Part shown: positions 1-244 of the stretch, in pieces
Layout: the number at the start of each line of letters is the position of its first letter
Numbering within the stretch: the stretch's first letter is position 1
Assembly (NCBI RefSeq): GCF_003334335.1
Contig: NZ_QOWQ01000231.1
Strand: one strand, 5' to 3'
Source: Escherichia coli
GTDB lineage: Bacteria > Pseudomonadota > Gammaproteobacteria > Enterobacterales > Enterobacteriaceae
Length of the DNA: 244 nt
Notes under the pieces: model-generated
The model's input: the letters and a program-made list of their open reading frames with translations, nothing else
The model's database searches: none
Told to the model about the DNA's origin: nothing
Made by a program: the position numbers and the translations under genes

Positions 1-150
1 CCGGCAGAGCCGGAAGCTGCATCCGTAGCGGAAACCGATGGTAAAGCCTTTCCTCAGCCAGCAGGTGTTGCGTTACCTGTCCGGGAAGCAGAAACACAGG
101 AAGAAATAAAAACGGAAAGTGTGGCGGTCACAGTGCAGTCACAGCCGTCG
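1..150 (+). other. Compositionally biased (Ala/Glu/Pro/Val/Thr/Gln-rich, net acidic) segment of the encoded protein; probable flexible interdomain linker or disordered region
   Basis: Codons 1-50 contain 9 Ala, 8 Glu, 7 Pro, 6 Val, 4 Thr and 4 Gln. There are 9 acidic residues (8 Glu, 1 Asp) against 3 basic (2 Lys, 1 Arg). No Cys, Trp, Tyr, Met, His or Asn occurs, and Phe, Leu and Ile occur once each. Confidence 0.5.
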
Positions 151-243
151 TTCACCAGAAAACATCCGGATGGTCTGATTTTACCATCGCTGCATGTGGC
201 TAACCGCGAGCTGCGCCGGGCAAAAGGTCAGGTTCAGAAGTGG
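1..243 (+). CDS. Internal fragment of a larger protein-coding gene, partial at both ends (no start or stop in window); product unidentified, with an acidic low-complexity linker-like segment followed by a basic segment
   Basis: Frame 1 is open for all 81 codons, while the other five frames contain stops; an 81-codon stop-free run in random sequence has roughly a 2% chance. Codon choice is largely enterobacterial-like (ccg, gcg, ctg, cag, gaa). No in-frame ATG or GTG is preceded by a plausible ribosome-binding site, so the start lies upstream of the window. Product is unknown: I do not recognise the peptide with confidence. Confidence 0.78.
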
Positions 244-244
244 G

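Follow-up and report, generated by a model that had tools for sequence, protein, structure and literature searches.

The 244-nt stretch of Escherichia coli DNA analysed here, referred to as the window, raises the question of what a handful of rare codons can say about the origin and the expression of a gene. An earlier note, made from the letters alone, had pointed to rare codons scattered through an open reading frame and had suggested that the gene was either weakly expressed or horizontally acquired. The analysis described below indicates that the window is very probably an unremarkable internal piece of coding sequence, belonging to a DUF1627/ydaW-family gene in the early region of a lambdoid prophage. 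Its surplus of ATA, AGA and CGG is best explained as a codon signature that lambdoid phage genes share in general, a reading to which we assign a probability of about 0.9.

Coding status and features of the window

Frame +1 is uninterrupted across all 244 nt, and the remaining frames contain only two short ORFs (23 and 33 aa) that are mechanical. Several E. coli strains carry a chromosomal sequence 100% identical to the window, each time within a CDS annotated as 'DUF1627 domain-containing protein'. In strain STEC17-183 the match corresponds to L001:20001-20244, inside the CDS L001:19614-20339. The gene is 726 nt (241 codons) long, and the window covers its codons 130-210 plus 1 nt. Comparison of the window with six other alleles gave dN/dS values of 0.17-0.38 (Nei-Gojobori), which shows purifying selection in frame +1. 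This frame is therefore real, given both the match to an annotated CDS and the dN/dS values. The features of the window are listed in Table 1.

Table 1. Features located in the window, with allele comparisons based on a codon-by-codon alignment of nine alleles.
Feature	Position	Strand	Basis or observation
Internal CDS segment, DUF1627 domain-containing protein (WP_000450636.1; ydaW family)	1..244	+	100% match; PF07789, E=1.1e-82; dN/dS
Most of linker 2, residues 130-169	1..120	+	AlphaFold pLDDT, homolog alignment
Start of conserved C-terminal module, residues 170-210	121..244	+	Alignment, pLDDT
CCT (Pro147), CCA (Pro149)	52..60	+	Ordinary minor Pro codons, no enrichment
TTA (Leu154)	73..75	+	Fixed in 9/9 alleles; TTA not enriched over core
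CCT	76-78	+	Ordinary minor Pro codon, no enrichment
CGG (Arg157), truly rare	82..84	+	Haplotype-specific; CAG (Gln) or GGG (Gly) in other alleles
ATA (Ile165), truly rare	106..108	+	ATT in 7/9 alleles, synonymous
AGA (Arg182), truly rare	157..159	+	GAA (Glu) or GCA (Ala) in other haplotype
TTA (Leu190)	181..183	+	TTG or TTT (Phe) in other alleles; not enriched
CCA	184-186	+	Ordinary minor Pro codon, no enrichment
CGG (Arg202), RR(A/T)K motif	217..219	+	Rare Arg codon, CGG or AGG, in 9/9 alleles

A search for non-coding signals gave little. An Rfam scan of positions 19000-21000 of the STEC17-183 locus returned no match at E<=1, and no promoter-like site was found in or around the window. Terminator-like matches numbered 3, against 1.4 +/- 1.2 in shuffled sequences, which is not clearly above expectation, and the window showed no more predicted RNA folding than its shuffled counterparts (z = -0.22). 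Repeats in the window are trivial and only 10 nt long. One of them is a perfect inverted repeat, CGATGGTAAA / TTTACCATCG, at window positions 36-45 and 180-189 with 134 nt between the arms; in view of the folding z-score, it is probably a chance occurrence.

Prophage context and distribution of the gene

In the two strains compared, the CDS containing the window is flanked on one side by the gene for replication protein P (or for a DnaC-like ATPase) and on the other by a DUF977 gene. The prophage around it opens with integrase, excisionase, exonuclease, dicB, a RelBE pair and a divergent repressor pair, followed by a YdaT-family gene and the replication genes (DUF1376 plus P, or HTH plus the DnaC-like ATPase). 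Then come DUF1627, DUF977 and nin-region genes, RusA, a DUF1133 gene in the Q-region, a DNA methyltransferase and three tRNA genes, and finally the lysis genes, terminase and portal. The insertion site of this prophage type differs, adjoining rspB in one strain and yccA in another. Diverged DUF1627 alleles are also found in the complete phage Rac-SA53, whose attachment site is ttcA and in which the gene is annotated ydaW, and in the PPompW phages (ompW site, as taken from the phage name). Among six further alleles, a replication gene lies directly before DUF1627 in all six and DUF977 follows it in five. A DUF1627 gene has in addition been reported, together with RusA and TerB, as a conserved neighbour (<=10 kb) of the prophage sRNAs PasA/PasC (bioRxiv 10.64898/2026.05.13.724894).

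The window sequence is present in 1016 of the 5426 complete E. coli genomes (19%), in a median of 2 copies per carrying genome (range 1-6), and some part of the gene is matched in 2722 of the 5426 (about half), at up to 9 places per genome and invariably beside the replication genes. With this presence, copy number and range of sites, the gene is neither part of the species core nor syntenic. Full phage modules surround it, and its presence, copy number and location vary as in the lambdoid-prophage accessory class; the distribution and the element context together make it an accessory, multi-copy, prophage-borne gene. The suspicion of horizontal acquisition is thus borne out, the source being a lambdoid prophage with variable site, presence and copy number, and an inspection of the genomic context, as the earlier note had proposed, revealed an integrase and phage genes around the gene, as well as differing insertion sites.

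Some copies of the DUF1627 gene are decaying. The ydaW gene of the cryptic Rac prophage of K-12 (NC_000913.3 1423011-1423201) is a truncated remnant comprising about a quarter of the gene, and the allele of strain E62 (L013:249-1010), interrupted by a stop codon, carries a pseudogene annotation. Elsewhere, in the second strain (L002:21393-24559), the IS21-family element ISEc10 (istA/istB) breaks an ead/Ea22-like gene about 1 kb downstream of DUF1627, and several nin-region genes near the insertion are truncated. The prophage of that strain is therefore probably defective.

Codon counts against reference usage

Three sets of genes served as references. The highly expressed (HE) set consisted of 31 K-12 genes (ribosomal proteins, EF-Tu, EF-G, rpoA) and was the source of the weights for the codon adaptation index (CAI). 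The core set comprised 64 chromosomal genes from the mra/fts/ace region of K-12, from host DNA flanking the two prophages and from a few other places; it is a sample rather than the whole genome, and comes mostly from K-12, a different strain from the holder of the exact match. The prophage set was made up of the 40 intact CDS of the prophage of strain STEC17-183. Expected codon counts were conditioned on the encoded amino acids.

All 10 codons named in the earlier note were found in frame +1 where it had placed them. Most of them lie within the span 73-219 that it had given, the exceptions being CCT 52-54 and CCA 58-60. It had further described all of these codons as little used in highly expressed genes. 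This is true of ATA (0.3% of Ile in the HE set), AGA (1.1% of Arg), CGG (0.7% of Arg) and TTA (3.6% of Leu). CCT and CCA, at 19.4% and 12% of Pro, are on the other hand non-preferred rather than rare, and CCT even makes up a larger share of Pro codons in the HE set than in the core set (15.2%).

In an 81-codon segment the rare codons could simply reflect chance in a small sample, being no more numerous than in any E. coli gene. For some of the codons this holds. TTA occurs 2 times in the window against 0.63 expected from core usage (P=0.12) and 3 times in the gene, against 2.38 from core (P=0.43) and 2.65 from prophage usage (P=0.51). Similarly, CCT and CCA together number 4 in the window against 2.71 from core usage (P=0.27), and 5 in the gene against 4.40 from core (P=0.46) and 5.38 from prophage usage (P=0.68). 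The CAI of the window (0.423) also falls within the distribution simulated under core usage (0.471 +/- 0.050, with 17% of the simulations lower). ATA, AGA and CGG, however, exceed chance: 4 are observed in the window against 0.66 expected from core usage (P=0.002), and 10 in the gene against 2.97 (P=4e-4), the latter number being in line with prophage usage (8.25 expected, P=0.30). Furthermore, the six classic rare codons (ATA, AGA, AGG, CGA, CGG, CTA) make up a fraction of 0.050 of the gene, which is above every one of the 64 core genes (median 0.019) and about equal to the prophage median (0.049). Chance alone is thus a very unlikely account of the whole pattern. The genuine signal consists of four codons in the window, to which the Leu and Pro codons add nothing; the supposed excess of rare codons stands for ATA, AGA and CGG and falls away for TTA, CCT and CCA.

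The codon statistics of the complete gene, which had been put forward as a check on a foreign origin, gave an answer that depended on the measure. The CAI of the gene is 0.403, against medians of 0.410, 0.343 and 0.678 for the core, prophage and HE sets, respectively, and its GC3 is 0.529, against medians of 0.550 (core) and 0.501 (prophage). Both values are near the core medians, whereas the rare-codon fraction, as seen above, is higher than in any core gene. When the same protein was resampled with synonymous codons, core usage gave a CAI of 0.452 +/- 0.030, placing the gene at P of about 0.05, and prophage usage gave 0.356 +/- 0.029, so that the observed value falls between the two sets. 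Since CAI and GC3 are not atypical for core genes, the 'foreign' signature is limited to few codons (10 in the gene).

Prophage-wide codon usage and the phage tRNA genes

The same codons are over-used throughout the prophage. ATA accounts for 16.5% of Ile codons in the prophage against 5.7% in the core set, and among Arg codons AGA reaches 12.1% against 2.3%, AGG 7.7% against 1.2% and CGG 17.8% against 8.6%. About 8 kb downstream of the DUF1627 gene lie three tandem tRNA genes with the anticodons CAT, TCG and TCT (L001:28249-28498), and the same trio is present in the second strain (L002:31566-31817). In Stx phage 933W this trio is called ileZ-argN-argO. The tRNA with the CAT anticodon, annotated as tRNA-Ile, aligns with ileX of K-12, the tRNA-Ile2 that reads AUA, rather than with metU, and the prophage tRNAs should therefore read ATA, CGA/CGG and AGA/AGG.

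This raises the possibility that translation of the DUF1627 gene depends on the prophage tRNA-Ile2(CAU), tRNA-Arg(UCG) and tRNA-Arg(UCU), codon usage and tRNAs being co-adapted. The trio indeed reads exactly the codon classes enriched in the prophage, where ATA, AGA, AGG and CGG are enriched 2- to 6-fold, its CAT member is ileX-like rather than metU-like, and lambdoid tRNA genes downstream of Q are thought to supplement host-rare codons (PMC3636060). A stronger bias in the tRNA-bearing phages was looked for among three phage genomes, but was not found. Rac-SA53 lacks tRNA genes altogether, yet it uses the matching codons as much or more (ATA 17.2%, AGA 13.8%, AGG 8.7%, CGA 12.6% and CGG 14.4% over 66 CDS and 15,346 codons). 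The PPompW phages carry tRNAs with the anticodons CAT, TTT (Lys) and TCT, lacking TCG, yet show the highest use of CGG (21.1%). Moreover, most of the rare codons in the gene vary from allele to allele. A dependence of this gene on the phage tRNAs is accordingly highly unlikely, and equally hard to credit is its more specific form, in which DUF1627 synthesis would depend on the phage tRNAs with the always-rare Arg202 codon as a conserved control point. Because a tRNA-less relative shows a bias just as strong, which departs from the pattern described for tRNA genes downstream of Q, the bias appears to be a property of the lambdoid gene pool.

Rare codons among alleles and along the gene

The 12 rare codons of the gene are located at residues 13, 51, 97, 124, 157, 165, 182, 202, 212, 218, 224 and 228. 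Such codons could in principle be programmed to slow translation, pausing the ribosome for co-translational folding at domain boundaries. CGG157 and ATA165 do lie in the linker after winged-helix domain 2 (see below), and the Arg202 codon is uniformly rare among the alleles aligned. On the other hand, a search across the whole gene revealed no clustering of rare codons at domain boundaries: they are spread roughly by Arg/Ile/Leu content, the segments of the protein holding 2, 0, 2, 2 and 6 rare codons against 13, 1, 15, 4 and 19 Arg/Ile/Leu residues. In addition, most alleles have CAG in place of CGG157 and ATT in place of ATA165. Given this lack of clustering and of persistence between alleles, we rejected the translational pause, which we regard as extremely improbable.

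Two codons are more constant than the others. The uniformly rare codon at Arg202 may reflect shared descent, given the few independent lineages among the alleles; the nearby Arg198 and Arg201 use CGC or CGT. A site-specific role for the Arg202 codon and TTA154 is conceivable, if unlikely. CCT147 is likewise fixed in the nine alleles.

The alignment also revealed a mosaic structure. Around window positions 82-174 (residues 157-187) the alleles fall into two haplotype blocks, REAETQEEIKTESVAVTVQSQPSFTRKHPDG and QEAATQEDIKTETVADIVQSLPSFTETQADD, which are reassorted with different N- and C-terminal segments, indicating mosaic recombination within the gene. Divergence is greater in the 5' half of the gene, which encodes the winged-helix segments (dS about 0.2-1.4), than in the 3' half (about 0.1-0.6), as is typical of mosaics. 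At window positions 37-75 (residues 142-154, DGKAFPQPAGVAL), the DNA is nearly invariant in the nine alleles, third positions included. This segment falls in the predicted disordered linker, and distant homologs lack it. It may represent a short linear motif for binding, or else a block shared through recent recombination; as dS in this segment is only 0.25-0.4, the excess conservation is not clearly significant.

Protein family and predicted structure

The protein matches Pfam DUF1627 (PF07789) over the complete model (1-155 of 155, residues 76-230), which makes it a member of this family, and the residues encoded by the window, 130-210, fall inside the match. It also matches phrog_630 (E=2.4e-119). 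The family is small, with 156 clusters at 50% identity among 1.84 billion representatives, and its members are mostly from E. coli and Shigella, every named one being called DUF1627 only. PHROG, NCBIfam and the sequence clusters assign no function to family members. The gene around the window represents one allele of the known, mosaic DUF1627/Rac ydaW family, from which it differs in nothing material; it is 98% identical to the nearest representative of the 90% clusters.

Two winged-helix domains, at residues 1-52 and 69-123, are predicted by an AlphaFold model (mean pLDDT 81) for which 33 diverged homologs were used. They would be followed by a disordered linker at residues of about 126-169, which is rich in Pro, Glu, Ala and Thr, has a pLDDT of 44-58 and no predicted secondary structure, and is indel-rich and variable in length and sequence among the 33 homologs. 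The C-terminal module carries the pattern IPsF..LxxP..E(I/L)RR(T/A)K and is predicted to end in a long helix from residue 193 to 240 (pLDDT 91-94). Within this module, R201 (window 214-216, CGC) is invariant in the family.

Searches for relatives of assigned function were uninformative. An NCBIfam search with the protein gave no match, PADLOC returned one marginal match (E=0.006) and nothing meaningful, and PDB sequence profiles gave weak winged-helix matches only, with no function. Foldseek searches of PDB and BFVD likewise retrieved generic tandem winged-helix proteins at low TM-scores, pointing to no function. Among them, ScpB, the SelB C-terminal domains, ESCRT-II and AlkX/YcaQ match both N-terminal winged-helix domains (E from 5e-5 to 1e-2). 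With TM-scores of 0.2-0.25 and identities of 12-22%, this is a generic likeness of fold, and it concerns a region of the protein other than the one that the window encodes.

A parallel in position is provided by Ren of phage lambda. The DUF1627 gene occupies the same slot, first after P (L001:19614-20339, compared with L016:1781-2071 in lambda), and winged-helix domain 2 (residues 69-126) weakly resembles Ren residues 4-62 (phrog_142, 'Ren-like exclusion protein'). The PHROG match to phrog_142 has an E of 1.4e-5 over 50 residues and the hhalign match an E of 0.0016 with a probability of only 16%; lambda Ren itself matches phrog_142 at E=1.6e-41. The two proteins differ in architecture, Ren being a single domain of 96 aa, whereas the DUF1627 protein, at 241 aa, combines two winged-helix domains with a disordered linker and a C-terminal helix. 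Homology between them is at best tentative.

Discussion

The prophage fits what is known of prophage and horizontally acquired E. coli genes in its enrichment of ATA, AGA, AGG and CGG relative to the core and in its tRNAs with CAU (Ile2 type), UCG and UCU anticodons, but the CAI and GC3 of the DUF1627 gene are not atypical. If the excess is the codon signature of the lambdoid gene pool, as we consider most probable, it could have arisen as follows. Lambdoid phage genes move between hosts and recombine as mosaics. Judging from the position of the gene, they would presumably be repressed in the lysogen, with a short burst of expression once the prophage is induced; because of this, selection for host-optimal codons would be weak, which is the usual explanation, and synonymous usage would then lie between host-core and unselected usage. 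The individual rare codons, scattered as they are and mostly differing between alleles, would have no site-specific role, and the phage tRNAs Ile2-CAU, Arg-UCG and Arg-UCU would act as genome-level compensation that is not specific to the DUF1627 gene. The other suggestion of the earlier note, weak expression, is compatible with these data, in that a position in the early operon would imply repression in the lysogen.

The rare-codon pattern is an already known phenomenon, seen here in a known prophage gene family. The result mainly classes the window as prophage DNA with the codon signature expected of lambdoid genes, and goes little beyond housekeeping. For the reading of such sequences it carries some practical points. 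Counting TTA, CCT and CCA as 'rare' dilutes the signal, and CAI and GC3 can miss a prophage gene that the truly rare codons (ATA, AGA, AGG, CGA, CGG) flag. Unlike CAI and GC3, the genomic context settled the origin of the gene at once. Apart from its codons, the DUF1627 family, widespread in prophages and uncharacterised, could merit experimental attention.
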